Positions 38,301 through 64,000 of a stretch of DNA of 64,000 nucleotides are shown piece by piece. The DNA is taken from positions 1 through 64,000 of IMG/VR virus record IMGVR_UViG_3300032282_005553; one strand, written 5' to 3'. Below the pieces are notes generated by a model, which saw only the letters and a list, made by a program, of their open reading frames with translations, was not told the origin of the DNA and made no database searches. The translations under genes were made by a program, and so were the position numbers. Source of the DNA: a virus. Position 1 is the stretch's first letter. Each line of letters begins with the position of its first letter.

Positions 38301-39629
38301 TTTTATGTAGAATATATCAACAACACTGTATTTCCAACATATAAACAAAATGTTATTCCGTCTGCTAGTGGCATAGCATATTGGATACATTCCAAAGATG
38401 GGGAATTTCCACCAGTATATCCAGTAGATAATTTTCAATTAATAATACCAACAGGACAGATATATAATAAGCAATTCACATTTATTGGAGGAAGATCAGA
38501 CGGGTCACCAAACTATTACAGCACTAATCTGCCTAGAGTCACAGGCTACATAGAACAAAAAAGGTTTAATACTTATTCTGGAACATACCATCAAGATCAA
38601 AATAGCTCGTCACTAAGACTATTATTTAGTGATCCTCCGAATTTAGAACTAAACGACGCAATCTATGTAGAATTTTTAACATCACAAAATCAGGTAAACT
38701 TTCTTCCTTCTGGTAGTGGTGTAATGATATCTTCTGTTTCGTCATCTCTATATACCATTAGCGACTTTATGACTAATAGTACAGTAGAAAAAAATGGTAC
38801 ATTTATTGCTAGAGACCTATATCAAATTTATGCTGATCCGACAGACAGCGACAATCTTAATATTAGATATAATAGTACAATTGATCCTCAAATATTCTCA
38901 ATAGGCACTGGCATAGATCTCATTGATAGCAGAGATAAGAGTAGATCATTATTAGGGAATATATTCAATATAGACTCATCTGTTGATATACCCAATACTG
39001 TAAATATTTCTGCTTTATCAGAATCCCCAGATCGTATTGCTACTATCTATAACGTATCTAGTGACTATTATTCAAATCTATTAGGAAGTAATTACACAGG
39101 TCTTTGCGATTTGAGAACAACAGTGTTTTATGAAAATCTTGCATTTACACGAAAGGTTAACGACTCTGCTAGTAATATAGGCACCACAACATATACTTTA
39201 ACAGGAATATTAAATAATCCATTTAATACATATACTTATAGAGTTATAACTTGCGATAATCTCTATTGGTCAAATATAGAAAACCGTAAAGTATACGGTA
39301 AAGATTTTGACTTGATCGTTACTGCTCCATTAACTATTATTCCAGAATCTAGTGGCATTATTGATTCAAATCCTAACATTAATGGTGGAATAGTTTGGAA
39401 TTTTTCATTCTCTGTAACCGGCGGATATATTCCGCGAGCTAATGACTTTTTAGAAATAGAGATTGATGATATGATTCATACATTCAATAGATCTGATACT
39501 GTTTATGAATCCGGGTTATATTCAATACTAACAACCAGACCGGGCATAAGTTGGACAGGTAGTACTTTTAATCTTAAAGTGTACGATAGCGTTAGTGTTG
39601 CTTCTGGTACTTTTGATATACCGAGCTAA
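29307..39629 (+). CDS. giant (3440 aa) fibre/adhesin protein
   Basis: Short GXY tract, GTYTKVSTDTKGRV and LDADLLDG fibre repeats, YadA-head-like SLAIGxxN repeats, Ig-like GGNPPY/GDLPAGI segments. Confidence 0.7.
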   Translation: MTIVNVIEEQNLSKYLVITQQKDPSTLITTRVVITDNANNRINLVNIERGIQGDIGPQGSQGIPGKDGMIFDVLPIASGGTNNTVFSNDKIVYFDGLKLTSSIYSVDELINSQNAITGIVTGSGLSKIDNGKNITLNTNLGDGLTLSNNAIVVDDTIARKSEISLGTVLPGAVPINKGGTNNTSFFTNTFVYFDGTKLTSFPLDTGRIVTSGSVINIVAGSGLVGGGQVSIPGGSVVINIPNSSDIAVLDNIIELSTTGTAGTYTKVSTDTKGRVVSGTQLTQADIISALGYTPWNPTNDGQDSGLDADLLDGKHGSFYTNLSNLTGTISTGILPNIVTPGLYSKVSVNSKGLVLGGSSIDSQDVYNALGYRPVSTSGDTITGNLDIDGSLNVQNSFTLKDNLPEFGYNNYSLFPNAPRGFSFTYGNVARRTGILAYYPDDNQLRLITNIYGTGITDLDGSISSETNYNGDVDGGDASSIYLMGNLDGDQAVVLLQHIADTRYISLTKDQIVNGIKSFNNYISVKNFVFIQNMNQGGPPLYVDGNSVLVDSLNVDFLDGEHGAYYRNAANITGYLNYATVNVTHISGTNTYIPKFDNRTPNPSRTITDSIVFQSGDNLIVVEDGSLSIGKTNKISSSESLAIGSSNNITSDNSLAAGYKNTISGDNSVAINYQTITRADNSFAMGKHGTTWIENQLSIGAFEELNPVDQIYRIGHGQQSTAALGYYGEAQSYTSMFPNITVPNNKTVLYNLDLLFSKFGSSGVASFRFASGIIKNTNGILTNIKSPIKQELYNSSQIRDYPYNIKIDSNDINKNQTLSVTQVPLKSNVPEIQNFPKVVKIKPNLSEISGQFFKTLDGNILLNMSTPIFSGWFTQGFNDKAVYIKSYDHGMVPGAYVDLQYIAGISGNIYKPTRGLSISGVKVTQVIDKDNFVVSSLSYEGVHEQSGTVFISYGNLISDPSQQITLSGTINQDSNVINNLSYLSGNVFINDLSNIKSSILPNMLLRIFNENVVGTLDSYPVRIVSTGYNNGNFQLIIDNLYTGITTNTSFGLYDYPIFALESSQKAFFNSEQFNTENAFTNFTLNSSGIRFDIFGYDNQTKPTGRYDITVTPVINYIDETSKTNSGTMYLHHKRSYDCSYKREKAIFAPYDVSYVHNKSDNGLSNINFAANSEIDFLINYDPYVQFLAATNSFSGILTSGSNLIINCYPTQEFNIVTGLLLHVNTSNFYYSGIVNDVNGTTLTMNNTFSLCSGSTGVLVIYSGQIPPSAKYTKLFTILNGSGYVAQREFLSPDTGIYFTGNAKVYSNYGYATITSHTLLPSKTKEYPANIADDEFVYIDFKTNNTGLIPIDNTYITTGCSPNTFKIISNHLMPDSGIACTGFSYATLDKDHGYLAPNSNSMSNVQQQIPLFFDIYPTYSAKSELYTSYYHNNNINRKPKDNILSIIGVTGHQILVNDNRYQLLKEINRSPLYNDYTKSYFNKYYINNKYYLYIDASKRYLEPNDKVIINKAFNIENGFINPKNIDNMKFKVADFIDNQYVLQLIENNDELISGVIDDTLIGNSGYISYLGFQDGYVTSPTNGFYFHSYGDGSESWRRDDRGIYINPPLTGFFNIYSSPKLCNSGTLCIHISGISDISYIPVNKQLFFDFIDTDPVLTGLYTVYDKLSNDLLTINIPYDSRYVNNSGLVYLIDALTNIKTDKNLNINNVFFQSYIYDDILGNKNLSSFNYYNNRWKHGIFLDNSGLVSPTGYLNTTIDVSHDGLPIISKTNANIIVMNPFDMSFDISYSGINTSNYEDLVPVLGQLPSLTTETNSLIYFMVSIKGGAGKWSNTINQCAPLVNILGLKDYSIVNKEFDEANQEWKIKIQAYAPNGVVNAKNLKFIVSDESDRQIKDIILSTSVPFTISNIEQTEYAQQFSTVPWKIFCDVYGGNPPYYITLPGVDVSDYDVYPLSNPAPYSDLPDHYTYLIKGTGWYSTTGINTQNIVVSDSSYKNITGIASFMITDYDKTFIVNPRMYKTNLVINKNSPGNNYITFLIPCRNSPPPGTTKVQFTNTQNLTLNNIVSSYYYSLDAYRYSIKVDVGNSTETNLYNIGITGSIIQPILREGLNENFVFSTGVSINVYQPVAVDTYKLVQPVPYDIDSVWALTLDIVNGAYYNSSVSGRQLRAYLGNTPNNGRYDSNPLQYKLGYSYVTNEASPRHRVSFTGLSDTFSVNNTTTGIHDLYYYVEDFTSYATGVIKILMNGGVDLINLHDKKYATPNNGFDINFDIEGLTYGPGENYSAPSIINNDSLKNDPLISFNSNYAKYDPHIKIWEYFYNGSPIPDKWNSELLIYNDILDVRVKGLSNDKIYVAGKFDTVETDNVIIVERPFGIKSVSPASIDDNQKTEGEAWEITVVTTGGLEDPFYPPLIKLSSTPLNTCTGYNPADAQNSQECVVPPSWNAASKEWTFKFNGPKLCLIGTYNVDIEAKDVIVGSINNGPKQILQVKGTASSGAPIFYKSGEAHPPPELDDIKNKNLFPNCSPFSESAEYRSKSREVCPQPTGISGVIAWGDLPAGIQFSNSRINSTAYVAPYNDLTPGIIYFNGTPTEFADGGKYPYKFYVNAVDAVGRSGSPKLIEFNDASKPIEISPTDLTIYFDKPGYQYTPELGTEIIDDDSQRVHRPPAAEFSMKCLSKLPHNKCVYSSGSYSNVVIQDGIFFGMDITSPQISKILQNNKVYVTFTGILNNDQGQPASLLNGSYTVDSINPANASIRITGINNKMYLLNLTDPTGGINIVNITDNRKNKSLSDVMNDYFINESQPLTTQFSLPDGSTSDVTGIMGDGKLGTIGQDTQTYGIYGRIKPIAYTTSTGYPDNTNAIFDNVNFHIIPGQEKFTEPYVVQFNNCYETGYLRVSGVIIPKFYIDITDPPPGTEGSNPRYFTQPSDDIGTVTRSSYGDDIAYRGSAQSSINARTVPITYVVKDQINNLIKINGSLSDESIGLYNKTITMSENDNASVYSFYVEYINNTVFPTYKQNVIPSASGIAYWIHSKDGEFPPVYPVDNFQLIIPTGQIYNKQFTFIGGRSDGSPNYYSTNLPRVTGYIEQKRFNTYSGTYHQDQNSSSLRLLFSDPPNLELNDAIYVEFLTSQNQVNFLPSGSGVMISSVSSSLYTISDFMTNSTVEKNGTFIARDLYQIYADPTDSDNLNIRYNSTIDPQIFSIGTGIDLIDSRDKSRSLLGNIFNIDSSVDIPNTVNISALSESPDRIATIYNVSSDYYSNLLGSNYTGLCDLRTTVFYENLAFTRKVNDSASNIGTTTYTLTGILNNPFNTYTYRVITCDNLYWSNIENRKVYGKDFDLIVTAPLTIIPESSGIIDSNPNINGGIVWNFSFSVTGGYIPRANDFLEIEIDDMIHTFNRSDTVYESGLYSILTTRPGISWTGSTFNLKVYDSVSVASGTFDIPS

Positions 39630-44467: not shown

Positions 44468-47400
44468 ATGAGCAATCAAATTCGCATTAAAAGACGTCTA
44501 AAAGGAAGTACAGAAACATCGCTACCTGATCTACTAACTGGAGAATTGGCTTATGACGAAGTTAAGGGCAAACTATATATAGGAGAAAGTGATGGATCAC
44601 TGGTTAATGCTAAAGAAATAGGTGGATCTGGATGGTTGCTTCCTCAGATTACTGGAATAACAAATAATATATATGTTCCTAAAAATGGAGACGGAGCGAA
44701 TGGAACATGGAATATTAGTGTAACAGGTAATGCTGGGTTTGTTACTAATGGAGTTTATACAACTGGAAATCAAAGTATAAGCGGCATTAAAACATTTTCT
44801 TCTGGACTTTTGGTTACTACTACAGGAATCTCCAATGGAGAAGGTTTTGATTTTGTAGGATCAAGTGGTAATGGCATTTATGTTCCTAGTGGAACAATAA
44901 GAACCAAGGACCTTTATGTTGATGGTTGGCTAACTGTTGGTACAAAATTAGATATTCTTTCTGCTGCAGAAATATTGTCTCGTGGTCCCATAGTATATAA
45001 AGCAGACAAATATATTTTTGAAAGTGGTATTGGTATATTTACTAATGGGTTATATGTTGGTCCAACAGGATCACCAACTGGTGTTTCACTAAGTGGACAT
45101 AAACACGACTATACAGACATAAGCAACTTTTGCACTGGCGTGGCCTCTTGCGTTAATACTTCTCTGAATGCCGGTAGTGGATTGGTTCTAAATTATTTAG
45201 AAGCCTCTGGTATATATTTAGATATTGGGCAAGGAGACGGTATCGTTGTATCTGATAATTATATTTCAGTAGATTCCACAATTGTTAGAACAAGTGGCGC
45301 TCAAAATATAAGTGGAGTTAAAACATTTTATAATGGTCCATTAACTGACCTTACTATCAAAACAAATACTAGTGGAACAGGTAATTTAGTATTTATGGAT
45401 GGAACTCATTATGGTTATTTTGGATGGGATGGCACCAATCATAGTTTGATTTTTGATAGTTCTATATCAAGTGGAAGTTTGGATATTAGAAAAACTCTTA
45501 AATATAAGGTTCCATCTACTGGGACAGTCGCAACAAGCATACCTGTATTTACTGGAGGAAATCCATCAGTTGTATCAGAAACTATAACATCCAGAAGCGT
45601 TAGTGATTTCAAATCAGACTTGAGTTTGAATAACGTATCAAATAATAATCAAATGATAGCATATGCTGGTAGAACATCTGGTTATGTTCCAACATGGAGT
45701 GGCACAGATGGTACAACACTTAACAGCGGTTATGCTGTAACGTCTAATCTTACTAATGATACTACGGCAGCCTATCTTGTTACTGCTAGCGGAGCAAAAT
45801 CTTATGTTGATGCTCAAGTAGGCGGAGCAACCTCTATAGTTAGAACAACTGGTAGCCAAAATATCAGCGGAGTTAAGACATTTTTTGATACTCCTACTTT
45901 TAATACTGGTATTTTATCATCTGGCACAAACACCCTACAGGTAGCATCAACGTCGTTAACTGCTACTCAATTTGTTGTATTTACTGAAGATCCATCTGCT
46001 TCTTCAAAAGCTATTTATACCAGAACTCCTTCTCAGGTTAGGAGCGACATAGGATTAGGAAACGTTACTAATCATGTTCAGATGAAACAATCTTCTGATA
46101 CCACGGTCGTCGGATATGTTCCAACTTGGAATAGTACAAGCGGAGATATACTTGGTAGCGGATATATGGTAACATCTAATCTTACCAATGATAATACAAG
46201 TATTTATCTTGTTACGGCAAGTGGAGCTAAGTCTTACGTTGATGCTCAAGTAGGAGGAGCGACCTCTATAGTCAGAACAACAGGAACTCAAGCTATCGGC
46301 GGAGTAAAAGTTTTTCAAAATATTGTAATTACAGGGAATGGAGGGAGTGCGAGTTCTCTTGTTTTTGATGATAATTTTACAACTGCGAGTGTAGATTCCC
46401 TATTTAATCCTCGTTTAGGAATAAGCACATATTTAGCTGCAGATAATACTCCTGCACCTAATACTGAATTAATAATAGGATATAATCCTAACGGATATAG
46501 TGAAACAACTAATACTAGACTATTTGCTGGCCAAAATGAAGTTGGAGCATTAAGTTTTGAGACTGCTAATGGAAAGGTTAGTAGATTAGTATTTGATATA
46601 CGAGCACCGTCTGCTAGCGCAAAAACAACTCTTAGAACTAAATCAAGTGCGGGAGATATTATAATAGATCTTCCCAACACCTCTGGAACATTAGCGCTAT
46701 TAGCAAATATAAATACCTCTCAAATTACTGGGACTTTACCAGTTAATAAGGGTGGTACAAATATAACTTCTTATAGTAATGGTCAGTTATTAATTGGTAG
46801 TGGAACAAGTCTTGCTGCTAATACTCTTACTCAAGGAGATGGTACTACCATTACTAATGGTTCTGGCACTATCGGTATTGCCGTTAATAATACCGTAGTT
46901 AGAACAACAGGAAATCAAGATATTGTTGGCGCAAAACAATTTTATGAATCATCAAATAGTCAAGTTATATTTGGTACAGCTGATGATAAAATTAGAGTTA
47001 AAGCTCCCAATACAGATAATCAAACATATTATTTTGTTGGGCTTGACGGAGGCGGTTCTCCGCCTAGTTCTAACTCGGCAGATAGATCTTTAGTTTCACG
47101 ATCAGCGTCTCAAGTTAAAACTGATCTTAGTTTGAACAATGTTACTAATCATGTTCAGATGAAACAATCTTCTGATACCACGGTCGTCGGATATGTTCCA
47201 ACTTGGAATAGTACAAGCGGAGAGCTATTAGCTTCTGGATATGCTGTGTCCACAAATTTATCAACAAATAGCGGATCATCGTATATTCCTAGAGCTGATG
47301 CTTTAGTTTCTTATGTCAATTCTGCTATTAATAATGGTATAGCAACTAATGACGCTATGATTTTCAAAACAACATTAGATTGTTCAGCTAATCCTAATTA

Positions 47401-48709
47401 TCCGGCTGCAGATAGAGGTTGGGTATATAAAATTAGTGTTGCTGGTAAGATTGGTGGAGCTTCTGGACCAGTAGTAGAAGTTAATGATACAATAATTTGC
47501 GGAAATGATAGTACGCCTTCTGGTGATCATGCTACTGTTGGTAGTAATTGGCATATTTTACAAACTAATATTGTTGACTCTAGTATTCTTGTTACTGGTC
47601 CATCTACTGCCACTAGCGGAAACATAGCCTTGTTTAATGGAACTACAGGCAAAGCAATTACTGGAAGTATTATATTTCAAAGTGGAAACAATATTGGAAT
47701 TGGCAATAATTCAGCAAATGGATATGATGGATCATTATCTGTTGGTACTGGTAATTTTACTACAGTTCTTACCGTAGGAACAACAGGAGTAAGCTTAAGT
47801 GGACATACTCATACTGTCTCGAATATTAGTGATTTTGGAAGAGGAGTGAGTGGACTCATTGTTGGATCTGGAAATTATCTAACAAGATTTAACGCTTCAA
47901 ATTCTGGAATTACAAATAGCATAATTTATCAAAGCGGAGATAATATAGGTATTGGTACAGAAAATCCTGATCAATGCCTAACTGTTAATGGGACTTTCAG
48001 ATCAAGTGAGATTTTAACAAAAAGTCTTACTATTAGCGATTTATATGGGGCTAATCCTAGTTTAGACATTGATGTCTATAGCACAAATAATCATAGATTA
48101 TTAATTGATCATAGTAATGGAGTGATAAATTTATATGATACACTGGGTCTGATCGGACCTAATAACTCAGTTTATATAGGACCAAATGCTGGATCAAAGA
48201 TTCCAGCATCAAAACTTGATGTTAGTGGGATTATTACGGCGACTAGCGGAAACAGTAATCAGTGGAATATGGCATATGGCTGGGGTAACCATGCTTCCGG
48301 TGGATATGCTCAAAACTCATCTGTGGTAAAAACAACAGGAAATCAGACTACAAGTGGTATTAAAACATTTATAGATGTACCAGTATTTAGTGGTGGTATT
48401 AGTATAACATCCGCTAGTACGCCAACAGTATCCTGGATAGCGTGTTTTGATGGGGCGGATCCGACAGGTACTGCGGTACCTATACAAAGAATAAGTGTTG
48501 CTGATTTTAAAAACGATATTGGATTAGTATCTAGTAATATAACAACTCCTAGTGGAAATAGTCTCAGTCATCTGAATCTATTAACAGACTCTTTTGCCGA
48601 TAATGGAGCTGGCTCGGCCTGTCAAATTTTACAAAAAAATGCTTCAAATACTGCTTATGAATTTACTAGCAGCTTATGTAATATAACTATAGATTGTGGA
48701 ACATTTTAA
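44468..48709 (+). CDS. long repetitive fibre protein
   Basis: QIRIKRR...GELAYDE; repeated VRTTGxQxIxGxKxF modules; ends IDCGTF. Confidence 0.75.
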   Translation: MSNQIRIKRRLKGSTETSLPDLLTGELAYDEVKGKLYIGESDGSLVNAKEIGGSGWLLPQITGITNNIYVPKNGDGANGTWNISVTGNAGFVTNGVYTTGNQSISGIKTFSSGLLVTTTGISNGEGFDFVGSSGNGIYVPSGTIRTKDLYVDGWLTVGTKLDILSAAEILSRGPIVYKADKYIFESGIGIFTNGLYVGPTGSPTGVSLSGHKHDYTDISNFCTGVASCVNTSLNAGSGLVLNYLEASGIYLDIGQGDGIVVSDNYISVDSTIVRTSGAQNISGVKTFYNGPLTDLTIKTNTSGTGNLVFMDGTHYGYFGWDGTNHSLIFDSSISSGSLDIRKTLKYKVPSTGTVATSIPVFTGGNPSVVSETITSRSVSDFKSDLSLNNVSNNNQMIAYAGRTSGYVPTWSGTDGTTLNSGYAVTSNLTNDTTAAYLVTASGAKSYVDAQVGGATSIVRTTGSQNISGVKTFFDTPTFNTGILSSGTNTLQVASTSLTATQFVVFTEDPSASSKAIYTRTPSQVRSDIGLGNVTNHVQMKQSSDTTVVGYVPTWNSTSGDILGSGYMVTSNLTNDNTSIYLVTASGAKSYVDAQVGGATSIVRTTGTQAIGGVKVFQNIVITGNGGSASSLVFDDNFTTASVDSLFNPRLGISTYLAADNTPAPNTELIIGYNPNGYSETTNTRLFAGQNEVGALSFETANGKVSRLVFDIRAPSASAKTTLRTKSSAGDIIIDLPNTSGTLALLANINTSQITGTLPVNKGGTNITSYSNGQLLIGSGTSLAANTLTQGDGTTITNGSGTIGIAVNNTVVRTTGNQDIVGAKQFYESSNSQVIFGTADDKIRVKAPNTDNQTYYFVGLDGGGSPPSSNSADRSLVSRSASQVKTDLSLNNVTNHVQMKQSSDTTVVGYVPTWNSTSGELLASGYAVSTNLSTNSGSSYIPRADALVSYVNSAINNGIATNDAMIFKTTLDCSANPNYPAADRGWVYKISVAGKIGGASGPVVEVNDTIICGNDSTPSGDHATVGSNWHILQTNIVDSSILVTGPSTATSGNIALFNGTTGKAITGSIIFQSGNNIGIGNNSANGYDGSLSVGTGNFTTVLTVGTTGVSLSGHTHTVSNISDFGRGVSGLIVGSGNYLTRFNASNSGITNSIIYQSGDNIGIGTENPDQCLTVNGTFRSSEILTKSLTISDLYGANPSLDIDVYSTNNHRLLIDHSNGVINLYDTLGLIGPNNSVYIGPNAGSKIPASKLDVSGIITATSGNSNQWNMAYGWGNHASGGYAQNSSVVKTTGNQTTSGIKTFIDVPVFSGGISITSASTPTVSWIACFDGADPTGTAVPIQRISVADFKNDIGLVSSNITTPSGNSLSHLNLLTDSFADNGAGSACQILQKNASNTAYEFTSSLCNITIDCGTF
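46064..46146 (+). repeat. 83-bp exact direct repeat, copy 1
   Basis: Identical to 47141-47223 (gttactaatcatgttcagatg...gtacaagcggaga). Confidence 0.9.
47141..47223 (+). repeat. 83-bp exact direct repeat, copy 2
   Basis: Identical to 46064-46146. Confidence 0.9.
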
Positions 48710-54411: not shown

Positions 54412-57400
54412 ATGGCTAAAGGATTTAATTTAACAGCAGAAATTAATCTAAGAGGACCAGCGAACATTCGTACGGTCGTTGCCGATATACGTCGTCAATT
54501 AGGTACTGTTTCAGCGAACGTTAATGTAAAAGTGAATCCTGCATCATCCAGAAATATAGCTGGATTAAATCAAGCATTAACTAATCTTAATAATACTCTT
54601 TCTCAGACGAATGTATTGGCAACCCAAGTTACGGCATCGCTAAATGCTTTGGCAACCGCTGGCGGAACAGCATCTACATCTCTTGGAGGACTCCCAAGAT
54701 CGATGGGCTCGGCAACAGCATCTCTTAATAGATTTAATGCTAGTGCAGCGAATACAGGAAATGCTCTTAGAGTTTCTCGAACAGAATTCGAGGAATTCGG
54801 ACGTCAAGCTGCTCTAGCAGTAAGAAGATTTGCTGCATTTTCTACTGTTACTAGCGTTGTATTCAAGGTAACGAACGCTATTAGTTCAGCATATACAGAG
54901 TTCGTTGCTTTTGATAAAGAATTAGTCAGAGTGGCACAGGTTACTGATTCATCACTATCTAGTTTATCTGGATTAGAAAGAAGCATCACAAATTTATCAA
55001 CATCGCTTGGTGTATCGTCACAAGACTTAATTAAAGTTAGTAGCACATTAGCTCAGGCAGGATTGTCTGCCAAAGACACAGAAAAATCATTGAAAGCTTT
55101 AGCATTAAGTGCTTTGGCTCCATCATTCGAGGGACTAAATGATACGGTCGAAGGTAGTATTGCTCTTATGAGACAGTTCGGTATACAGGCTGGCGATCTT
55201 GAAAAATCTTTGGGTTCTATCAACGCAGTATCTGCTAGGTTTGCTGTAGAGGCCGGAGATATTATTGCTGCCATTCAGCGCACTGGTGGTGTGTTTGCTG
55301 CTGCGTCTAGAGGAGTTAGCGAAGGTAAAGATGCCTTAAATGAATTTATCGCAGTATTTACTAGTATTCGTGCCACAACTCGTGAAAGTGCAGAGACAAT
55401 TGCTACAGGCTTAAGAACAATTTTTACAAGAATACAAAGATCTAGCACAATAGAAGCACTAAAAGAATACGGAGTCAATCTTACAGATATTGAAGGTAAG
55501 TTTGTTGGAGCATATAAAGCTGTAGAACTACTTAGTGGTGGACTTGGTAAACTAGACCCAAGAGATCTTAAATTCAGTAAGATCATAGAAGAACTTGGTG
55601 GATTTAGACAGATTGGTAAAGTTATCCCTTTGATTCAAGAGTTCGCAACCGCACAACAAGCGTTGGCTGTCGCACAAAAGGGTCAGGGATCTTTAAGTAC
55701 AGACGCCGCTACTGCACAACAGGCATTAGCTATCAAGATATCAAAGGTAAGAGAAGAATTTATCGCATTAATTAGGTCTGTATCAAAAAGTGATAGTTTT
55801 CAAAATTTTATCAATTTGAGTCTTGATTTAGCAAGTTCACTCATAAAGCTTTCTGATTCTGCAAAAGTTTTACTACCAGCATTAACTGCCATTGCAGCAA
55901 TTAGGGGTGCTAGTTTTATAACGCAATTTTCTAGAGGATTTGCTGGTGGTATAAGAACTCAACGCAATAACAATGGTGGTCCGATAAGAGGTTTCGCTAC
56001 AGGGGGCTTGGTACCTGGGCGCGGTGATACAGATACATATCCCGCTATGTTAACTCCTGGTGAGTTTGTTATACGTAAAAAAGCGGTAGATAAAATAGGT
56101 GTTACTAATTTACATAGAATTAACAGGGCATCTGGAGGATATATTCCAAAAGTAAAATCAGAAAGCTCTGAACCAAAACAATATTTTGATGGAGCAAGAT
56201 CACAAAGAACAGTACAAAAAACTAAAAATAGTGGAAGATATATCGCCCCCAAAGTTAGCATACCAGAAAGAGCACACATAGGTGGTGATCTTTATATAGA
56301 TCAATCCTTTTTAGTCAGATATCTAGAGAGATACTCTGCATCAAAACTAAAAAGATCTATAGGAGAATTTTCTGGTACAAAACCAGGCATGGCAGTAGGC
56401 GTTATTGGTGGAATGAGTAAAACAGAATATGATAAATTTATCAAAGAAAAATTAAATCTGTCAGTTAAAAAAAGAATACGTCTGAATTTCCCAAGAACAT
56501 TTAATCAGGCATTAAGAGCAACAGACCCAGGTCTAGTATTAAAGAACGATCTTGTAGACATCGTATCATCTGCTCCAGACTTGACCGATCCTTTAGGCGG
56601 CTTGTCTTCATCAGAAATCAATAAAATTAAACAAAATAGTATACGAAAAATAAGATCATTAAAAGCATTACCAGCATCATCTTATCGTAAAAACTTAGGC
56701 TGGAGATCTGACACACCAGACAGTCTCAAAAATGCCCCAGCATTTGATAGCGATTATCAGCTCAATCCTTTGGCTCAAATAATAGAATCTAGTGTCAATC
56801 AGACAACCAAACAGAAACTACAAAACAATATAGATTTATTATTCAGATCATCAAAAAAAGACGCAAAATATATCTCTAGCAAAACAGGCCAAGAAAGAAC
56901 AAGAACTCAATCAAGAGAATCTGCTAGATTATCTACTATAATGAAAAAATATAGCAATGATCCTAGAAATGTGCAAAGAAGAGAAGAGTCATATTATGAC
57001 AGAGGATTAGAAAACGCAATATCTTCTTTACCAGAAAAAAGAAGTCGTAAAAAATCACAAACTACTTCCAACTACCCAAAAGATCGTATACCATTTTATA
57101 TGTTAAATGCTGGTGGTTCAGTACAAAGATTTGCTGATGGTGGAGTTACCACTAGAAATGTGGGTTATATAGACAGTGATGCGCTAAATGATCCAGCAAA
57201 TAAAGCTTTAGTAGATGAGCAAATAGAAAAACTTAAAAAACAAGGAATCAAAATAGAAGGTGGATACAGAGGCTATAAACAATATCTATCGGACCTTGCT
57301 GCAAAAGCTCGTCAAGAAAAACAAATTGGAAGATTAACATCTATCGTAGGGTTACCCGGAGCCGGTAAGAGCACCATGATGATGGGTAGTTCTCAGGCTG

Positions 57401-60400
57401 ACAATGCCACAATGAGAAAAACTACCAGATTCCCCATATTGACACCTGAAGATATAACAAGATCATCCTCAGTAATAGACGTTACAGCAAGTGTAAATCC
57501 TAAAAAAATAGATGCTTCTCTACAAGCATCAGATAGAATAGTATCATTGTCTTCATCAACTAAAGAAGAACAACAAGAATTACGCAGAAGACGAAAATTA
57601 AGAAATAGACAAATAGAGTCCGGAACCTCAACAACCGGTTTTGGTCGCAGAGCAGGAACAACGGATTCCGCCCCAGTAGATAGTGGATATATTGAAGCTA
57701 TTTTACAATCAGAAATTAAAGACCCCAAGAAGATAAGAACACTTGGAGTGACACCAAAAGGATTTAGAACAAAAAGAGGAGATGATATACCAGAAATATT
57801 AAAGGAAAAAATTAATCTATATTATGGTAATTTTGGACCAACAACAGCAGGCCACGTTGCTGCTCAACAACAAGGAATGCAAGAATCCGCTAAAAGAGGT
57901 ATTTCAAAATCAATTGTGGCTGTTGGGATAGATACTCCAGTTAAATCTGGAGATGAGCACTCTACAAGATCAGCATTATTGAGCCAAAAAGAAAGAATTG
58001 CTTTAGCTAAAAAAGCATTCCCAGAGTCGTCTATAACCGCAGCGACAAAAGAAACCTTTGGTTTCGGATTACCATCTCTCTATGAAATAGAAAAGAGTGG
58101 AACAGACAGAAGAAGATTTGTTAAGCCATTGGGTGGTAGCACAGCCACAGTAGGAGACGAAAAAGGATCAAGTTCTTTACAAAAATATTTAGATGCTGGA
58201 TTCGATCCTAAAGATATATTAACTCTTGAAAGATTGGGTGGTATTAGTGGTACTAAAGTTAGAGAGGCTCTATTAAAGGGTGACACCAAAACCCTAAAAA
58301 AATTAACAAGTCCAGCAGTATTCGATATTCTTAGTAGAAATTCTGAAGTTTTTCAAAGAAGATCTAGTATTTTACCAAAAATTATGGAGCGTATAGGAAC
58401 TAGAGCAACTTCATCACTAGGAGCAATAGAGGCCGAACTTGCAAAATATCCAGGTAGACTAACTCCCAAGATCAAAGCTGAACACCCAGAATACGAAGAG
58501 ATAGTAGATAATCTTAGAAAACAAAGAGATAAAATAAAAGCAAAAGCTGAATCCCGTTCGGGATCGACAATGAGAAGATTATCTAGAATGTTTCCATCAG
58601 CATACGGTATTGATATTGGAGATACTCAAAAGTTTATGGCTGGAGAAGCAGTAAAAGCTAGGGTCGGCAGGAAAAAAGCAGAAAGACTACATGATACTGA
58701 CATTGGCGAGGCTAGAACAAAGACCGCTAGCGAAATTATTTCAGAATTGACCATCTCCAGTGCTCAACAAGTATTAACGGAAGCTGGTGGAGCTAGAGTT
58801 AATGCGAATACATTACTTAGAAAATCAAAACTTAATCCAGATGAGCTTAGACTAAAAGACAGTATTTTATCTGCATATGTCACTAAAGTTAATGCTAAAG
58901 CTAAAGAGGCAAGAGAAAGAGACTTAGGAGCAACAACATCCGCACAACAAGCTAAGACTTTATTTGGTGTCATAGGAATGTTTGGAAATGGTTTTCCGGC
59001 TGAAAATATAACTTTGGAAGATGGACTTAAAAAACCCACTACTGTTAGAGTATTTGGCGCTGTTTTAGATAAGAATAAAGCTGAAAAAGATGCTAGATTA
59101 GAACAAAGAAAGAATAGATTAAGCGCTATAAATACTAAAAGAACTATAAAAGGTAAATCGAGACTGTCAGACTCAAGAGCACAAGATATTGAAAATGCTC
59201 CCATGGCATCTGCTCTCAGCAAAGAGTATTTACAAGAAGATTTATCTGGAATTACAAAAAGGACGGGTATCACACCACAAATGACTCCTGCTCTTAAAAA
59301 ATCTTTAGCTGATAGTCAAGGATCTAAATTTCAAAATGATGTTACTGCAACCTTAATTAAAACTCCAGAAGGTAAGGAAATATCCGATTCTATGATGAGA
59401 GATAATCAGCAAAGAAGCATAGACTTTCCATATGGGATTGGTATGTCTATGGCCAAGAATTGGTTTAATAATGCTTTATTAGCGAATATACCAGTTGATG
59501 CCAAAAGAACACTAACAGGACCAAGAGGAAAATTACTTAGTAATATCACTAATTATTTAAAAACTAAAGGATTTGCTATAGGTGGACACATACCAGAAAA
59601 TAATGAAGATTCGGTTCCAGCACTATTGACACCCGGAGAATTTGTGATCAATAAAAAAGCAGCCCAAAGAATAGGTGCTGCTAAATTACATCAGTTAAAC
59701 AGAGCAGATAGAATAAAGGGTTTCAATAAGGGTGGTGCTGTTGGACCACAAAGATTTTTCCTAGGAGGAGGAGCATCTGCCAGACCAGGAGATAGTGCTA
59801 ATATAAATAATTTAATGGTTCCTGCTAGTTCTATCAATCAATTGAGACTAATAGTAGATGCTCTTGAAGAACTAGGAGTTAGTGCTTCAAAATCAGCAGA
59901 TCTACTTAAAAAAGGAGGAAGAGCTAGTATACAAGCAGCACATGCCGCATATGAAGCTGATATAGTAAGACTACGTATTGCTGGTGCTCCCATACAAACA
60001 GTAATTAATGCTGAAACACAATTAGCAAATATGAGGCAGCAAGCAACGAGACAAGTTGCAGCACAAAGACAACTTTCTGGAGTTGGTGGATCAAAACTAC
60101 AAAGAATAGATACGGCAGCCCAAAACAATATTCAGAGAATGGTCCAGAGAGCTCAAAATGCTGGAGTAAATCTTGATGAAAATCAAATGCGTCGCATTGA
60201 AGATTTAGGATATAGAAGAGCTGCTACGAGAGCGAGAATATCTCCAACACAAATGGCAGGATTAAATGGTAATGATTTACGTCAATTTATTAACAGTGCC
60301 ATGGGTGATCCTAAAACTTTTCAGCAAATGAATAAAACTTTTGAGACACAGAGAAAACAAGAAATATTAAGACAAATAAATATTGAAAGAGGAGTTACTA

Positions 60401-63400
60401 ACGATAAAAAAGAAATAGCAAATAGATCCAAAGAAGCCAGAATGCTCGCGAAGGAAGAATCTGATGCTCGTAGACAGATACTAAACCAAACTAGAGGATC
60501 GTCCGGTCCGGGCTCTGCTAGATCGCAAAGATTTAATCAGGCAATGTTTGGAGCTAGTTTTGTTTTACCAATGGTAGGTCAAATGATGGGTGGAGATCCA
60601 TCAAATGCAGGATCATCTGCTCAAGCTGGTCAGATCGCCGGTGCTCAAGGGGCCGTAAACATGGCTAGTACAGGAGCTATGGTGACGAGCATGGCCGCCA
60701 CAGGACCAATTGGAATAGCGCTAGGTGCTGCTGCTACGGCCGTTGCGACTTTTGGACAAGCCACTATGGATGCCCATAATGCAGTAATTGATTTTGAGAA
60801 ACAATTAGTTGCTAAAAAAGTAGAACATGCAATAGCTGATATCAATAAAATGTTTGAAAAATTAGCTAAAGATCTTAGTAATGTAGATATTCAAAATTCT
60901 ATAACCAAAAAATTAAACGAAGCCACCTCAATCTTAATTGATAATATGGAGTTCCAAAGAAGAACTGCTAAAATTTATTGGACAAATATCATTGATATGA
61001 TGGCAAATAATAATAATGCATCTAATGAAAGAAGTAGGATATTAGAAAAACATGGTACAGGGGCGTATCTGAATTCTACAGCGTTTGGACAAAATCCGGT
61101 TGGAATGACGCTTAATGCAATAGCTTTTGGTATACCTGATGCTATATACAAAGCATTTAATGGCAAAAGCATGTTTGCTGGATCAGAAGAGAAAGCGAAT
61201 CAAAATAGATACGAATATACCAAAATGATGATACCTGACCAGGCTAGAGAATCAGCTAGAGGGTTCGCTGACCTTGCCGATACTGCTACAAGATTAATAG
61301 AAGAAAAAATTAGATCAGGAATGAATGTTGATGATATCATTAATAATCCAGACTTTGAAAAATATGGAAGAAATTTGGCATTGGCTAATTCTTCGGTACA
61401 AGAACAAATTTTGACTCTTAGAAATAGTATTCTTGTTGCTGATGATGAGAAAAAAGCTAGAGAAGAATCAATTATCAAAACATATGCTGAAGAGGAAGCA
61501 AGAAGAAGAGCTTCTATTGTAGCAAGAGAAATCGAGATAAGAGAAGCTAAAAAAAGTAGCGCTAAAATGTCCAGATCTCTAGAAAGAATGTTCCAAAATA
61601 TGGAGCAAGCAATAAATAGAACAAATTTCGGACTGCAACGAATGGCTGATGAGTTGGATCTTGTAACATCTTCATTAACTGGACAGGCCAAGGCCGGAGA
61701 GGGAGTACTAAAAAGCATCAATGTACTACAAAATCCAAGAGCATACTCCTCAAGAGACTTCTCTGAAGCAAGTAATCAAGCGGCATCATTTTTTGGCGAT
61801 AATTCTGGATTAATGAATGGATTATTAACTTTAGGTAATGATATCGAAACAACAATTATGGGTACTATTAGTAGGACCCTATCGGAAAATGAAGGAGACA
61901 ATCAAGAAAAAATTTCTGTTGCTATTGAAAGGGCTGTAAAAACTAAATTAGCTGATCTTGCTTTGCCAGAAGACGTTTCTGCTAAATTAGCTAGAGAAGT
62001 AAAAAGAGCTCTTGATCAATTAAGAAAAGAAGGTGATCAGAAGATAGATTTTAGTCAACTAGAAGAACGCTTACAAGATATCAGTAAAGTTTTTGATAGT
62101 GCAAAAAGAGCACAAGAAATAGCCATAAAAGCTCTGGAAAACTGGAATAGTGCTCTTAATGCCTATGCAGAGAGTATGAATAGAATTGTCGAACTACAGA
62201 TCTCTTATCAAGCTAGAGCTAGAAAATCTACCGAACTACAAACGAATGCACAACTAGAACTTGCTAAAGTGCTCGGTAGAGATGTTTCTGTATCAGATAT
62301 TAAAGAAAAAAGAGACTCACAAATTCGTCAACAGACCGGTGGTTTAACATCTCCAGATAGTATAGCAAAAAACTTTGCTAACCTAGAAGAAAAACGCAGA
62401 CAACAAGAAGCCGCTATTGATGTAGCAAGAAATCAAGGAGCAAGAGGAGCCGAAGATTTCCAAAAGATGCAAAATAATTTGGCTAAGACCAATGTTGCTT
62501 TAAGAGAAAATTATGATGCTCTTAAAAATCTTGCTGAAAATTCTGATGTCGCTGCTGCTGCTCTCAATAAAGTACAAGAAGCTCAACAAAAACAACAAGG
62601 AAAAGTTAGTTTTATAGAAAAACTTGTGACCAGTACTCCAGACGAATACAACGCATTAAACAGAGCTGTTATTAGATTACAACGAAATATGAATGGCCAA
62701 ATGAATTCAATCAATAACAGTGTTGGTGCTCAAAAAGCATATGCAGAAGCTTTGAATGAAGGAGCTAGTGCTGCAGAAGCCATGAGAGCAGCTCAAGCGG
62801 CATTTGCTAATGAAAGAAAAGATACACTATCAGCATTAAATGATTTGTTACCATTCCTTGGCAATGGACAACAAGCTAATCAAATAAGAGCAAATACATT
62901 ACAATCTATGCTAAAAGAGAGTGGACTCGGCGTCTCTCCTCTGATGCAACAAATTTTAGATTCTTTAAGGAACCCTGAGCTTGATCCAGAAACACAAAAA
63001 GCAATTCAACTATATGAAGATGCTAATCAATTACAAATAGCAGCAAATAATTCTTTAGTAAAAATAGAACAAGCATTAGCTGATGCCACAGCAGATAAAG
63101 CAGCAAAAGCTATAGCATCTGCTTTAGAAAAAACAATATTGACTTTTAAAACAGCAGAACAACAAGATATTAATAATGGAGTTGCTCAAGGTAGAGCATT
63201 TGGTGGTATTATCTATGCTTCAGAAGGAATGTTTACTCCCAGAGGTACAGATACTGTCCCCGCTATGTTAACGCCGGGAGAATTTGTAGTTAATAAAGCA
63301 GCAACAGCTAAAAATTTAGGATTATTACAAAATATTAATAATAATCATTATAGCACTGGTGGAAAAGTTAATTATTATGCAGCCGGGGGTTATGTTAGCA

Positions 63401-64000
63401 GCATACAAAAAGAAAATAAAAGAACTGAAGAAAACTTTAAAGAAACACAGGATAAATTTTTAGATTTAGATGATCCAGGACTAAGAGAAGTACTATCAGG
63501 CTCTGAGGGATCAAAGATTTATCAAATTCCTGGAAGATTCATTAAGGTAAAAGAGGATGCTCTAGCCCAAACTCCTGATCGTAATGCGTATAATGCCGGG
63601 GCTATGCCAAGATGGGATCTGAGTAAGATTTTTGACGCTCATCAGGATGGAAATATTGTTCCGGGTTATTCTATGGGTATGCAGATGAAGCGTACTTCAA
63701 CATTTCTTTATGGCAATATAGATTGGCCATTAATATATCCAATACCTGGAGTAACAAATACAGAACCAGTAGAAATTGGTAATGGTTCTTTTATTGGAGG
63801 CTTGACTGAAGATAAAAGAATATCGCTTGCTACTAAGCCATATGTTGTATCTGATGAAAAAAAATATTTAGAACAACTTCAAAGACTAAAAATTACACCT
63901 GAATTTATAAAAAAGAAATTTGCATGGATCTCTAATGCTGCTCATCCAGTAAGACAGGCAATAGATGGAGATATATTAGATTATCCCACTGATGTGACTC
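54412..64000 (+). CDS. giant tape measure protein (>3190 aa, runs off window) with embedded kinase, nucleotidyltransferase and nuclease-like domains
   Basis: AAGGA RBS, ATG 54412. No stop in the segments translated by hand (54412-59820, 60541-60780, 63181-64000), and no + strand ORF is listed here in the track, consistent with one unterminated frame. TP901-type core (LAQAGLSA...RQFGI...RESAETIATGLRTIFTRI...GGFRQ); three PA(M/L)LTPGEFV modules; Gly/Ala hydrophobic stretch at 60541-60760. Confidence 0.9.
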   Translation, partial: MAKGFNLTAEINLRGPANIRTVVADIRRQLGTVSANVNVKVNPASSRNIAGLNQALTNLNNTLSQTNVLATQVTASLNALATAGGTASTSLGGLPRSMGSATASLNRFNASAANTGNALRVSRTEFEEFGRQAALAVRRFAAFSTVTSVVFKVTNAISSAYTEFVAFDKELVRVAQVTDSSLSSLSGLERSITNLSTSLGVSSQDLIKVSSTLAQAGLSAKDTEKSLKALALSALAPSFEGLNDTVEGSIALMRQFGIQAGDLEKSLGSINAVSARFAVEAGDIIAAIQRTGGVFAAASRGVSEGKDALNEFIAVFTSIRATTRESAETIATGLRTIFTRIQRSSTIEALKEYGVNLTDIEGKFVGAYKAVELLSGGLGKLDPRDLKFSKIIEELGGFRQIGKVIPLIQEFATAQQALAVAQKGQGSLSTDAATAQQALAIKISKVREEFIALIRSVSKSDSFQNFINLSLDLASSLIKLSDSAKVLLPALTAIAAIRGASFITQFSRGFAGGIRTQRNNNGGPIRGFATGGLVPGRGDTDTYPAMLTPGEFVIRKKAVDKIGVTNLHRINRASGGYIPKVKSESSEPKQYFDGARSQRTVQKTKNSGRYIAPKVSIPERAHIGGDLYIDQSFLVRYLERYSASKLKRSIGEFSGTKPGMAVGVIGGMSKTEYDKFIKEKLNLSVKKRIRLNFPRTFNQALRATDPGLVLKNDLVDIVSSAPDLTDPLGGLSSSEINKIKQNSIRKIRSLKALPASSYRKNLGWRSDTPDSLKNAPAFDSDYQLNPLAQIIESSVNQTTKQKLQNNIDLLFRSSKKDAKYISSKTGQERTRTQSRESARLSTIMKKYSNDPRNVQRREESYYDRGLENAISSLPEKRSRKKSQTTSNYPKDRIPFYMLNAGGSVQRFADGGVTTRNVGYIDSDALNDPANKALVDEQIEKLKKQGIKIEGGYRGYKQYLSDLAAKARQEKQIGRLTSIVGLPGAGKSTMMMGSSQADNATMRKTTRFPILTPEDITRSSSVIDVTASVNPKKIDASLQASDRIVSLSSSTKEEQQELRRRRKLRNRQIESGTSTTGFGRRAGTTDSAPVDSGYIEAILQSEIKDPKKIRTLGVTPKGFRTKRGDDIPEILKEKINLYYGNFGPTTAGHVAAQQQGMQESAKRGISKSIVAVGIDTPVKSGDEHSTRSALLSQKERIALAKKAFPESSITAATKETFGFGLPSLYEIEKSGTDRRRFVKPLGGSTATVGDEKGSSSLQKYLDAGFDPKDILTLERLGGISGTKVREALLKGDTKTLKKLTSPAVFDILSRNSEVFQRRSSILPKIMERIGTRATSSLGAIEAELAKYPGRLTPKIKAEHPEYEEIVDNLRKQRDKIKAKAESRSGSTMRRLSRMFPSAYGIDIGDTQKFMAGEAVKARVGRKKAERLHDTDIGEARTKTASEIISELTISSAQQVLTEAGGARVNANTLLRKSKLNPDELRLKDSILSAYVTKVNAKAKEARERDLGATTSAQQAKTLFGVIGMFGNGFPAENITLEDGLKKPTTVRVFGAVLDKNKAEKDARLEQRKNRLSAINTKRTIKGKSRLSDSRAQDIENAPMASALSKEYLQEDLSGITKRTGITPQMTPALKKSLADSQGSKFQNDVTATLIKTPEGKEISDSMMRDNQQRSIDFPYGIGMSMAKNWFNNALLANIPVDAKRTLTGPRGKLLSNITNYLKTKGFAIGGHIPENNEDSVPALLTPGEFVINKKAAQRIGAAKLHQLNRADRIKGFNKGGAVGPQRFFLGGGASARPGDSANINNLMVPASSINQLRLIVDALEELGVSASKSADLLKKGGRASIQAAHAAYEADIVRLRIAGAPIQTVINAETQLANMRQQATRQVAAQRQLSGVGGSKLQRIDTAAQNNIQRMVQRAQNAGVNLDENQMRRIEDLGYRRAATRARISPTQMAGLNGNDLRQFINSAMGDPKTFQQMNKTFETQRKQEILRQINIERGVTNDKKEIANRSKEARMLAKEESDARRQILNQTRGSSGPGSARSQRFNQAMFGASFVLPMVGQMMGGDPSNAGSSAQAGQIAGAQGAVNMASTGAMVTSMAATGPIGIALGAAATAVATFGQATMDAHNAVIDFEKQLVAKKVEHAIADINKMFEKLAKDLSNVDIQNSITKKLNEATSILIDNMEFQRRTAKIYWTNIIDMMANNNNASNERSRILEKHGTGAYLNSTAFGQNPVGMTLNAIAFGIPDAIYKAFNGKSMFAGSEEKANQNRYEYTKMMIPDQARESARGFADLADTATRLIEEKIRSGMNVDDIINNPDFEKYGRNLALANSSVQEQILTLRNSILVADDEKKAREESIIKTYAEEEARRRASIVAREIEIREAKKSSAKMSRSLERMFQNMEQAINRTNFGLQRMADELDLVTSSLTGQAKAGEGVLKSINVLQNPRAYSSRDFSEASNQAASFFGDNSGLMNGLLTLGNDIETTIMGTISRTLSENEGDNQEKISVAIERAVKTKLADLALPEDVSAKLAREVKRALDQLRKEGDQKIDFSQLEERLQDISKVFDSAKRAQEIAIKALENWNSALNAYAESMNRIVELQISYQARARKSTELQTNAQLELAKVLGRDVSVSDIKEKRDSQIRQQTGGLTSPDSIAKNFANLEEKRRQQEAAIDVARNQGARGAEDFQKMQNNLAKTNVALRENYDALKNLAENSDVAAAALNKVQEAQQKQQGKVSFIEKLVTSTPDEYNALNRAVIRLQRNMNGQMNSINNSVGAQKAYAEALNEGASAAEAMRAAQAAFANERKDTLSALNDLLPFLGNGQQANQIRANTLQSMLKESGLGVSPLMQQILDSLRNPELDPETQKAIQLYEDANQLQIAANNSLVKIEQALADATADKAAKAIASALEKTILTFKTAEQQDINNGVAQGRAFGGIIYASEGMFTPRGTDTVPAMLTPGEFVVNKAATAKNLGLLQNINNNHYSTGGKVNYYAAGGYVSSIQKENKRTEENFKETQDKFLDLDDPGLREVLSGSEGSKIYQIPGRFIKVKEDALAQTPDRNAYNAGAMPRWDLSKIFDAHQDGNIVPGYSMGMQMKRTSTFLYGNIDWPLIYPIPGVTNTEPVEIGNGSFIGGLTEDKRISLATKPYVVSDEKKYLEQLQRLKITPEFIKKKFAWISNAAHPVRQAIDGDILDYPTDVT

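Follow-up and report, generated by a model that had tools for sequence, protein, structure and literature searches.

A P-loop kinase-like domain and a HIGH-type nucleotidyltransferase joined in an optional cassette of a giant phage tape measure protein

Tape measure proteins of phage tails are usually viewed as rulers and channel formers, and Thermus phage P23-45 offers one published case of a tape measure that carries an enzyme (PMC10770324). The stretch analyzed here, referred to as the window, comprises the first 64 kb (64,000 nucleotides) of the 136,889-base IMG/VR virus record IMGVR_UViG_3300032282_005553 (CheckV, 92% complete; G+C, 33.8%). Inside a giant tape measure gene of this window, at positions 57145–58632, an earlier reading of the letters alone (the sequence-only reading) had noticed the motifs of a P-loop kinase followed by those of a NadM/CoaD-like nucleotidyltransferase. 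The locus therefore raises the question of whether such an enzyme pair really exists within a tail protein and, if so, what it would do there.

By comparison with its homologues, the cassette is real, intact, and widespread. Structure prediction and sequence alignment show both folds, intact sets of nucleotide-binding residues, their conservation, and the occurrence pattern of the cassette among related proteins. We consider it rather probable that this is an optional cargo cassette of about 500 residues, in which a P-loop domain of the kinase kind and a HIGH/TxGH nucleotidyltransferase with a helical tail would act as a delivered two-step enzyme.

Conservation and predicted folds of the cassette

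Positions 57145–58632 of the + strand translate into 496 residues without a stop, corresponding to residues 912–1407 of the protein and bordered by FADGG and FMAG. The parts of the cassette are as follows; counts refer to the alignment of 73 sequences described below.

57145–58632, + strand: putative enzyme cassette, 496 residues (AlphaFold2 model, conserved block, presence/absence pattern)
57145–57759, + strand: P-loop kinase-like domain, cassette residues 1–205 (separate model, fold matches, N-terminal strand motif R..GYIDxD)
57343–57375, + strand: Walker A motif IVGLPGAGKST, cassette residues 67–77 (G69 in 72/73, K75 in 73/73, S or T at position 76 in 73/73)
57451–57453, + strand: invariant Asp D103, after the second strand (73/73)
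57583–57609, + strand: Arg-rich helix RRRRKLRNR, residues 147–155, candidate lid (in model helix 140–159)
57643–57681, + strand: interdomain loop G167-R168...D179 (R168 in 73/73, D179 in 71/73, G171 in 65/73)
57793–58344, + strand: predicted HIGH-type nucleotidyltransferase domain, cassette residues ~217–400 (VIA-align, Foldseek)
57826–57855, + strand: GxFxPxTxGH motif, G228...T234-A-G-H237 (conservation)
57967–57996, + strand: R275...R284, the 'KER' stretch (both Arg in 73/73; aligned with the FSxxER helix of H. pylori PPAT)
58243–58263, + strand: ISGTKVR, second nucleotide-binding motif, SxTxxR (S368 in 73/73, T370 in 72/73, R373 in 73/73)
58342–58605, + strand: C-terminal long-helix hairpin, cassette residues 400–487 (model helices 400–432 and 448–482)

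All the motifs that the sequence-only reading had quoted are indeed encoded in 57145–58632, within a real tape measure protein according to the translation and the PF10145 and PHROG matches. In addition to those listed above, LYYGNFGPTTAGH occupies cassette residues 225–237 (nt 57817–57855), LLSQKERIALAKKAF and VGDEK are both present in the translation, and ISGTKVREALLKGD...LTSPAV spans cassette residues 367–392 (nt 58243–58320).

A HMMER search of 1.84 billion representatives with the cassette returned 95 proteins at E ≤ 1e-3, 88 at 1e-10, and 72 at 1e-30. Sixty-eight of the 95 are 2,000–7,279 residues long; the 27 shorter ones cover the cassette in part and, judging by this coverage, are taken for fragments. 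Among carriers, the cassette is 31–61% identical. Conservation was read from an alignment of the query with the 72 matches covering more than 400 positions (n = 73). All 73 sequences share K75, D103, R168, H237, R275, R284, Y348, R363, S368, R373, and R406, and 72 share G69, D130, G228, P232, G236, and T370, while T234 is found in 69 and is replaced by S or Q in the remaining four. The Walker A form [GA]xxxxGK[ST] occurs in 70 of 73, with G69xxG72xG74K75[ST] as its pattern in the cassette. The N-terminal motif R..GYIDxD is nearly as constant (R4 in 69, G7 in 71, D10 and D12 in 72 each), as are R153 of the Arg-rich helix (71) and R458 of the hairpin (67); R150 is kept in 55, with K in 10 more. 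The copy in the window carries every conserved residue. Because there are 95 homologous proteins and the key residues are near-invariant, the cassette is, on these alignments, more than a chance assembly of motifs.

In both halves, the residues predicted to be catalytic are unchanged in 73/73, in line with the conservation that the sequence-only reading had made a test of its proposal. Two of the motifs named in it need correction. In its 'ER' motif, the Arg holds (R284), but the Glu is mostly Phe in the homologues; similarly, SVID is present at cassette residues 109–112, but its D112 is found in only 27/73, and the invariant acidic residues are D103 and D130 instead.

The whole cassette was modelled with AlphaFold2 from the 496 residues aligned with 24 whole homologues (alignment A1), which gave a mean pLDDT of 90.1 and a pTM of 0.84. 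Since the pTM is high over 496 residues, the model argues for a fixed two-domain unit, both halves being placed confidently against each other. The interdomain loop G167-R168...D179 has no regular secondary structure, and its pLDDT blocks are 83–92.

For the transferase half, the picture is clear at the level of the fold. Foldseek retrieved 69 PDB structures at E ≤ 1e-3, every listed one being NadM, PPAT (phosphopantetheine adenylyltransferase), NadD, NMNAT (nicotinamide mononucleotide adenylyltransferase), or MJ0951; E values for the PPAT, NadM, and NMNAT matches are 5e-6 to 1e-4. VIA-align, run against 48,161 representative chains, placed PPAT 4nah_A on top with Z 13.6 (145 residues, root-mean-square deviation 2.9, model residues 220–401, 19% identity). 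NadM 2qjo_A scored 13.1, NMNAT 1f9a_A and NadD 4rpi_A 13.0 each, NadR 8x7f_A 11.3, TmcAL 5y0n_A 10.5, and MJ0951 3gmi_A 9.3; the TmcAL match extends over 212 residues, the most of any (model residues 221–495, helical tail included). In the model, the fold class of residues ~217–400 is certain, namely that of HIGH-type nucleotidyltransferases, but the sub-family is not, because the top Z values of PPAT, NadM, NMNAT, and NadD are tied (values within 1 were counted as such). The predicted fold is Rossmann-like (HUP) and carries both the (H/T)xGH motif (T234-A-G-H237) and the SxTxxR motif (S368-G-T370..R373). The claim of a HIGH-class nucleotidyltransferase of the NadM/CoaD/NMNAT fold is thus borne out by the model, Foldseek, and VIA-align. 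For the helix hairpin 400–487, helical bundles and the C-terminal portion of TmcAL are the only structures that align.

Two other pairings that were considered were ranked lower: that of FAD synthetase (Z 11.1), a weaker match than PPAT and NMNAT whose kinase, moreover, is not a P-loop protein, and that of ATP sulfurylase with APS kinase (Z 8.4–9.0), again on account of weaker matches.

Sequence comparison reaches the same fold less directly. A profile of the transferase half (A3, 12 sequences) searched against PDB sequences matched MJ0951 (3gmi_A) at E 1.4e-8, the match being limited to the ISGT motif and the following helix; in the single-sequence search, 3gmi_A came at E 0.0058, and ISGTKVR gives the strongest local match to this protein. 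The best whole-domain PDB sequence match is 9x6f_A, Bas30_86 (E 1.5e-4, profile positions 24–173 on chain residues 9–157). PPATs reached E 3.4e-3 at best, with half a domain covered, and NadR of H. influenzae and of L. lactis E 0.037 and 1.5, respectively. A language-model look-up, whose results serve as leads only, pointed to viral CTP_transf_like clusters at 0.90–0.91 for this half and to AAA_33 and Zeta_toxin clusters at 0.87–0.89 for the P-loop half. TxGH in place of HxGH, which the sequence-only reading had counted as a weakness, is no defect, as Bas30_86 also has TxGH in the alignment. The PPAT motif is TxGH too.

The P-loop half is more distant from everything it was compared with. Modelled alone (A2), the N-terminal 205 residues gave a pLDDT of 90.6 and a pTM of 0.87. 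A zeta toxin was the top match of this domain in both VIA-align runs (Z 6.9–7.0); for the separate model, it was that of N. gonorrhoeae (6epg_B, Z 7.0, 147 residues, root-mean-square deviation 3.8). Next came adenylate kinase 6ln3 (Z 6.6) and UMP kinase 1ukz (Z 6.4), with dephospho-CoA kinase, PNKP, Pnkp1, thymidylate kinase, and NRK1 at Z 5.0–5.4. The highest-ranked matches are mostly P-loop kinases; related sulfotransferases and a few other P-loop proteins are also among the 50 listed. MeaB-type GTPases lead the Foldseek list for PDB and were set aside in favour of the VIA-align kinase list, their template modelling (TM) scores being only 0.24–0.28. Among viral models, the best TM (0.45) belongs to an uncultured-phage 'Zeta toxin domain containing protein'. 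The only kinase-type Pfam match of the cassette is Ploopntkinase3 at E 0.13, and a profile of this domain (A4) gave only Walker-A-level matches to PDB sequences, for example to UvrA.

On the model, then, the first half is best described as a kinase-type P-loop domain, a far outlier with a weak resemblance to known kinases. Kinases of the PNK and zeta type use a Walker A motif, an Asp after the next strand, and an Arg-rich helix for hydroxyl phosphorylation, and by analogy D103 may be the catalytic base or a metal ligand. Of the proposed P-loop kinase, the P-loop domain and its nearest folds, which are P-loop kinases, stand; the word kinase itself is drawn from Z values below 8 and from motif logic.

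A unit present or absent in giant tape measure proteins

The open reading frame (ORF) around the cassette is listed as 54412..63999 on the + strand and is open at the 3' end of the window; in the whole record, it reaches nt 74010 without a stop, giving a protein of 6,532 residues. The features of this gene that the argument needs are the following.

54412–64000 in the window, to nt 74010 of the record, + strand: giant tape measure protein gene (ORF, translation, PHROG families)
54982–55596, + strand: tape-measure core domain, Pfam PF10145 (PhageMin_Tail), protein residues 191–395 (E 1.9e-23)
56041–56070, + strand: core PAMLTPGEFV of repeat copy 1, upstream of the cassette (regular-expression scan)
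59617–59646, + strand: core PALLTPGEFV of repeat copy 2, downstream of the cassette (regular-expression scan)
63259–63288, + strand: third repeat copy within the window

The PF10145 match scores 83.8 bits against a curated cut-off of 33.2, and several PHROG tape-measure families match the protein at 5.9e-22 and below. Relatives bear source names such as 'TP901 family phage tail tape measure protein' and 'MAG: phage tail tape measure protein [Sphingobacteriia bacterium]'; judged by one source name, Bacteroidota are the probable hosts of the phage family. On the same strand, the tape measure gene is preceded by TerL (5766–7793), the portal gene (7852–10047), and many tail and tail-fibre genes, which form a structural gene block. 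Because of these family matches, names, and neighbours, gene 54412–74010 is assigned to an uncultured tailed phage as its tape measure gene. The genes immediately flanking it on both sides gave no family match, so the order of tube, chaperone, and tape measure genes is not readable here, and the large ORFs downstream (1,448, 1,390, and 2,715 residues) had no PHROG match.

When all matches were mapped on the 6,532 residues, three shared blocks emerged, the core (1–580), the cassette (~900–1400), and a helical block (~2300–2950); the rest of the protein is variable, and the edges of the cassette block are sharp. A search with core residues 100–560 (window 54700–56100) found at least 500 giant proteins, and the best 120 of them, which are 59–75% identical over these residues, were examined. 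Compared with the 31–61% identity of the cassette, this range indicates that the scaffold is far more constrained than the cargo.

The cassette is carried by 49 of these 120 nearest core relatives, in one copy each and at scattered ranks; apart from the near-identical P0098, the two closest core relatives lack it. With P0003 and P0098 set aside, the block 901–1400 is covered in 47/47 carriers and 0/71 non-carriers, and in this comparison no partner block elsewhere in the protein travels with it. Residues ~4400–4650 alone are mildly enriched in carriers (0.31–0.36 vs 0.04), which may reflect relatedness.

Outside tape measures, the searches were negative. No free-standing relative of the transferase half was found at E ≤ 1e-3 when its profile was run against 5.8 billion proteins of 154–562 residues, and a tblastn search with the cassette through 50,697 deposited phage genomes gave no match. 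With a single-protein query, no related loci were confirmed in IMG/VR; the closer alignment A5 gave four (L005–L008), whose records were used for family searches. The cassette was found only in giant tape measures, where it is optional and present or absent as a unit.

Its borders coincide with repeats, as it lies between repeat copies 1 and 2. Scanning the 6,532 residues located 8 copies, at residues 544, 1736, 2950, 4042, 4913, 5089, 5872, and 6282. The repeat is ~50 residues long and has a near-invariant core (D)T(V/Y)PA(M/L)LTPGEFV with GG motifs on its flanks; its copies stand between the blocks of the protein. In the window part, three matches to it come from PHROG 35029, a family of unknown function. 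In the closest relatives, copy 2 directly follows the cassette (A5 consensus). The flanks of the cassette within the same inter-repeat block (residues 578–911 and 1408–1720) have no PDB sequence match and no Pfam match. The repeat may serve as a hinge, a processing site, or a recombination site.

Other cargo is found in the same family. An ADP-ribosyltransferase-like (ART-like) cassette is present in 40 of the 212 related proteins examined, for example in P0054 at residues 941–1234, and in 12 of the 27 proteins holding both it is fused directly in front of the kinase–transferase module. The ART-like call rests on PF03496, a borderline match seen in 2 of the 18 proteins scanned (best E 1.2e-6; 22.7 bits against 23.4 in P0054), and the motifs F-L-S-T-S and E-x-E are conserved in 38 aligned segments; phmmer of P0054 against PDB gave no match. 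The tape measure is therefore a very large virion protein with several unrelated enzyme-like domains that vary between relatives, which is one part of the description of a polyvalent protein in the sense of Iyer et al. (2017). Among these uncultured phages, a large family for which the database has at least 500 giant tape measures, the scaffold appears to be used for swappable enzyme cassettes, of which the kinase–transferase cassette is one of the commonest.

Some further features of the family and the record may be mentioned. One of the 18 scanned relatives contains a full chorismate-binding enzyme domain (PF00425, E 3e-72), another metabolic cassette of the tape-measure family. Farther along the tape measure protein of the present record, residues ~4489–4523 (record nt ~67876–67980) show a weak SprT-like zinc-peptidase match (E 0.0087, 16.3 bits against a cut-off of 25.6). 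The structural block also holds a second giant ORF of 3,440 residues (29307–39629, + strand) with no Pfam match at E ≤ 0.01, and a 1,413-residue protein (44468–48706, + strand), three stretches of which match the baseplate domain BppL_N, the N-terminal domain of lower baseplate proteins (E 2.1e-22). Several neighbouring ORFs share a ~50-residue N-terminal module of the tail-fibre type.

Proposed activity, delivery, and rival readings

In the scheme that we favour, the cassette would exit the tail together with the tape measure when infection begins, reach the cytoplasm, and use host adenosine triphosphate (ATP). Some small metabolite would first be phosphorylated on a hydroxyl by the kinase half; the transferase half would next attach adenosine monophosphate (AMP), or another nucleoside monophosphate, to that phosphate, yielding a dinucleotide-type product. 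The two steps are suggested by the kinase-type residue pattern of the first half and by R275 and R284 of the second, which align with the phosphate-side helix of PPAT, the part that meets the acceptor phosphate; this fits a phosphorylated acceptor, as in NadR. Because both steps need nucleoside triphosphates, a cytoplasm is the only place where the cassette could work. On infection, tape measure proteins are ejected from the tail. Delivery of the cassette into the host is plausible by analogy: the virion RNA polymerase responsible for transcribing the first genes of P23-45 is part of its tape measure, gp96 (PMC10770324), and virion-delivered 'polyvalent' phage proteins include zeta-like kinases (PMC5512222), as stated in the accessible text of these reports.

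As to the substrate, the caveat of the sequence-only reading that it cannot be read from the sequence stands, as PPAT and NMNAT are tied by structure. The leading single guess, a tentative one, is the route from nicotinamide riboside through nicotinamide mononucleotide (NMN) to nicotinamide adenine dinucleotide (NAD+). Somewhat more doubtful is the broader idea that the tail delivers a metabolic counter-defence at time zero, in the form of a reverse-order NadR-like nicotinamide riboside kinase/NMN adenylyltransferase or of some other maker or modifier of dinucleotides. The cassette would then start at the site of DNA entry before any phage gene expression, and would pre-empt NAD+-depleting immunity or feed the ADP-ribosyltransferase cassettes that stand in front of the module in some relatives.

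Several results weigh against the proposal of a delivered two-step enzyme. The kinase call is soft, as the matches of the N-terminal domain are all below Z 8; Foldseek of its model against PDB and BFVD (viral models) gave no match at E ≤ 1e-3, and no kinase family was found for it by sequence in Pfam or PDB. In particular, PF06414 and PF13671 are absent from the cassette at E ≤ 1 and from 18 homologues at E ≤ 0.01. In the transferase half, PF01467 reaches only 17.0 and 18.5 bits, below the curated cut-off of 21 (one of the 18 scanned homologues attains E 7.7e-6), PF16581 covers residues 344–401 only, at 25.7 bits against a cut-off of 26.7 (E 1.4e-5), and the structure fails to separate NMNAT from PPAT. 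The profile check suggested in the sequence-only reading thus stayed below the cut-off for PF01467 and came out negative for the AAA_33 and NadR kinase families, whereas structure prediction, suggested along with it, shows both folds. Delivery has difficulties of its own. A virion has few tape measure copies, which lie in a tube lumen of ~4 nm, so a globular domain of 55 kDa would need to unfold for the passage, and so few enzyme molecules would hardly be able to refill a millimolar NAD+ pool.

If the NAD+ guess is taken up in full, the cassette would be a NadR in reverse order, with the P-loop half as nicotinamide riboside kinase, the second half as NMN adenylyltransferase, and NAD+ made at time zero; we regard this as possible but unlikely, and give the same low weight to its proposed purpose of countering NAD+-depleting defences or supplying co-delivered ADP-ribosyltransferases. 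The whole-domain match to Bas30_86 (NARP3), with the same TxGH and K-Y-L...R...IS(A/G)T..R pattern, speaks for it, as do the Z values of NadM (13.1), NMNAT (13.0), and NadR 8x7f (11.3), and human NRK1 (2p0e, Z 5.1) is among the N-domain matches. PPAT, however, equals NMNAT in score (Z 13.6), the profile hardly recognizes cellular NadRs (E 0.037 and 1.5), and NRK1 does not rise above the dephospho-CoA, thymidylate, and polynucleotide kinases in rank. The domain order is also the reverse of that in NadR, the P-loop domain (1–205) preceding the transferase (217–400), and very few enzyme copies would be delivered per infection. In 12 of the 27 relatives carrying both, the ART-like cassette borders on the module without an intervening repeat, but the two are not associated overall (12/13/37/58, Fisher p 0.49), and the protein of the window has no ART-like segment. 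Phage NadR, NadM, and NadV are known counter-defences, according to the accessible texts of PMC9503650 and PMC13464706; set against this, no PnuC (PF04973), Nampt, or NAPRTase gene was found in the four records searched, namely that of this phage and three related complete or near-complete ones, two of them 100% complete (the record of L006 was left out).

The same two steps might act on another small molecule, which we judge distinctly less likely: either by a PPAT-type course from pantetheine through 4'-phosphopantetheine to dephospho-CoA, or by an attack like that of zeta toxins, with a nucleotide sugar or NAD itself as the target, whose product the transferase would modify. PPAT is the top structural match, with Foldseek PPAT matches of up to 21% identity, and the H. 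pylori enzyme has TxGH and FSxxER at the positions of the profile, yet PPAT profile matches are at E 3e-3 and worse, and no biological reason has been offered for a phage to need CoA at entry. The zeta-type variant draws on the top N-domain match and the best TM among viral models, as well as on the zeta-like kinases that the accessible text of PMC5512222 places in injected polyvalent proteins; against it, the zeta match is below Z 8 and neither Zeta_toxin nor AAA_33 is matched in Pfam. Improbable in our view is the reading that dispenses with injection, in which the cassette acts late in the producing cell, on tape measures that are still free, or, having no chemistry in the newly infected host, serves as a plug or as a structural or assembly element that binds nucleotides. 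The tail tube is too narrow for folded globular domains, and the tail can be built without the cassette, which only 49/120 relatives have; but an optional element is unlikely to be a structural necessity, the 73/73 conservation of residues that matter only for catalysis argues for chemistry, and the tape-measure-borne enzyme of P23-45 can act after delivery (PMC10770324, accessible text). Least probable of all, with a slim chance, is that nucleic-acid ends or transfer RNA (tRNA) are the target, of a PNK-like 5'-kinase joined to a TmcAL/UPF0348-like adenylate-forming enzyme whose helical tail would hold RNA. The best sequence-level matches are indeed MJ0951/UPF0348 (E 0.0058 single, 1.4e-8 profile) and PF16581 (E 1.4e-5), TmcAL 5y0n_A aligns over the most residues (212), and PNKP and Pnkp1 are among the N-domain matches (Z 5.2–5.4). 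However, the MJ0951 match consists of the ISGT motif and the next helix, with 2.1 bits for the catalytic N-terminal part, PF16581 stays below its cut-off, and the Z values of TmcAL and MJ0951 (9.3–10.5) are lower than those of PPAT and NMNAT, long helices being easily aligned.

Should the delivered two-step enzyme be confirmed as delivered and active, small-molecule enzymology would be brought into the cell before gene expression, adding a new layer to the contest of defence and counter-defence, and the storage and passage of folded enzymes through the tail would become a testable question. If its product were NAD+, it would represent a fourth, structurally distinct phage route of NAD+ restoration.

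Comparison with known systems

The nearest phage counterpart is Bas30_86 (PDB 9X6H/9X6F), a NadR-like NARP3 enzyme with NMNAT in residues 1–166 and ribosylnicotinamide kinase in residues 167–351, as given in the accessible text of PMC13464706. Like NadR and Bas30_86, the cassette joins a predicted P-loop kinase and a HIGH-type adenylyltransferase in one polypeptide, and TxGH and IS(A/G)TxxR are common to both. Bas30_86 is likewise phage-encoded, and it acts against an NAD+-depleting defence (PMC13464706). The differences lie in order and setting: in Bas30_86, NMNAT precedes the kinase, whereas in the cassette the kinase-like half precedes the transferase, and Bas30_86 is a free cytoplasmic enzyme of 357 residues, made after infection and partnered by a PnuC-like transporter, whereas the cassette is part of a virion protein and has no PnuC gene beside it in the records searched. 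The NadR kinase shows no sequence match to the kinase half of the cassette.

PPAT (CoaD) resembles the transferase half in that the GxFxPxTxGH, FSxxER-like, and ISSxxxR-like motifs line up, and it is the top structural match; it differs as a free enzyme of ~160 residues with no fused kinase and no helical tail. UPF0348/TmcAL proteins (MJ0951, 3GMI; B. subtilis TmcAL, 5Y0N) share with the cassette a HIGH-type fold followed by a helical C-terminal part, but the match stops short of the catalytic N-terminal half, PF16581 falls below its cut-off, and no PF05636 match was reported. Zeta-toxin, PNK, and AAA_33 kinases have in common with the N-terminal domain the Walker A motif, the invariant Asp after the next strand, and the Arg-rich helix, together with the idea of a virion-delivered kinase; the domain has no sequence-level membership in these families, and its fold matches are below Z 8. 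In the survey of polyvalent proteins by Iyer et al. (2017), the accessible text makes no mention of tape measures, and HIGH-type transferases are absent from the domains listed there (PMC5512222).

A screen of the literature, mostly of titles and listings and with supplementary tables outside its scope, found no description of a kinase–transferase cassette in a tape measure. The closest precedent for the host protein is gp96 of P23-45, also a giant tape measure (5,002 residues) with a working enzyme that is thought to enter with or ahead of the DNA, according to the accessible text of PMC10770324. In gp96, the enzyme is an RNA polymerase at the N-terminus, whereas here it would be a metabolite-type enzyme pair, situated after the tape-measure core and bounded by repeats. 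Enzyme-carrying tape measures, multi-effector virion proteins, and kinase–adenylyltransferase fusions are each known already; what did not turn up in the literature screened is a cassette of this make-up in a tape measure.

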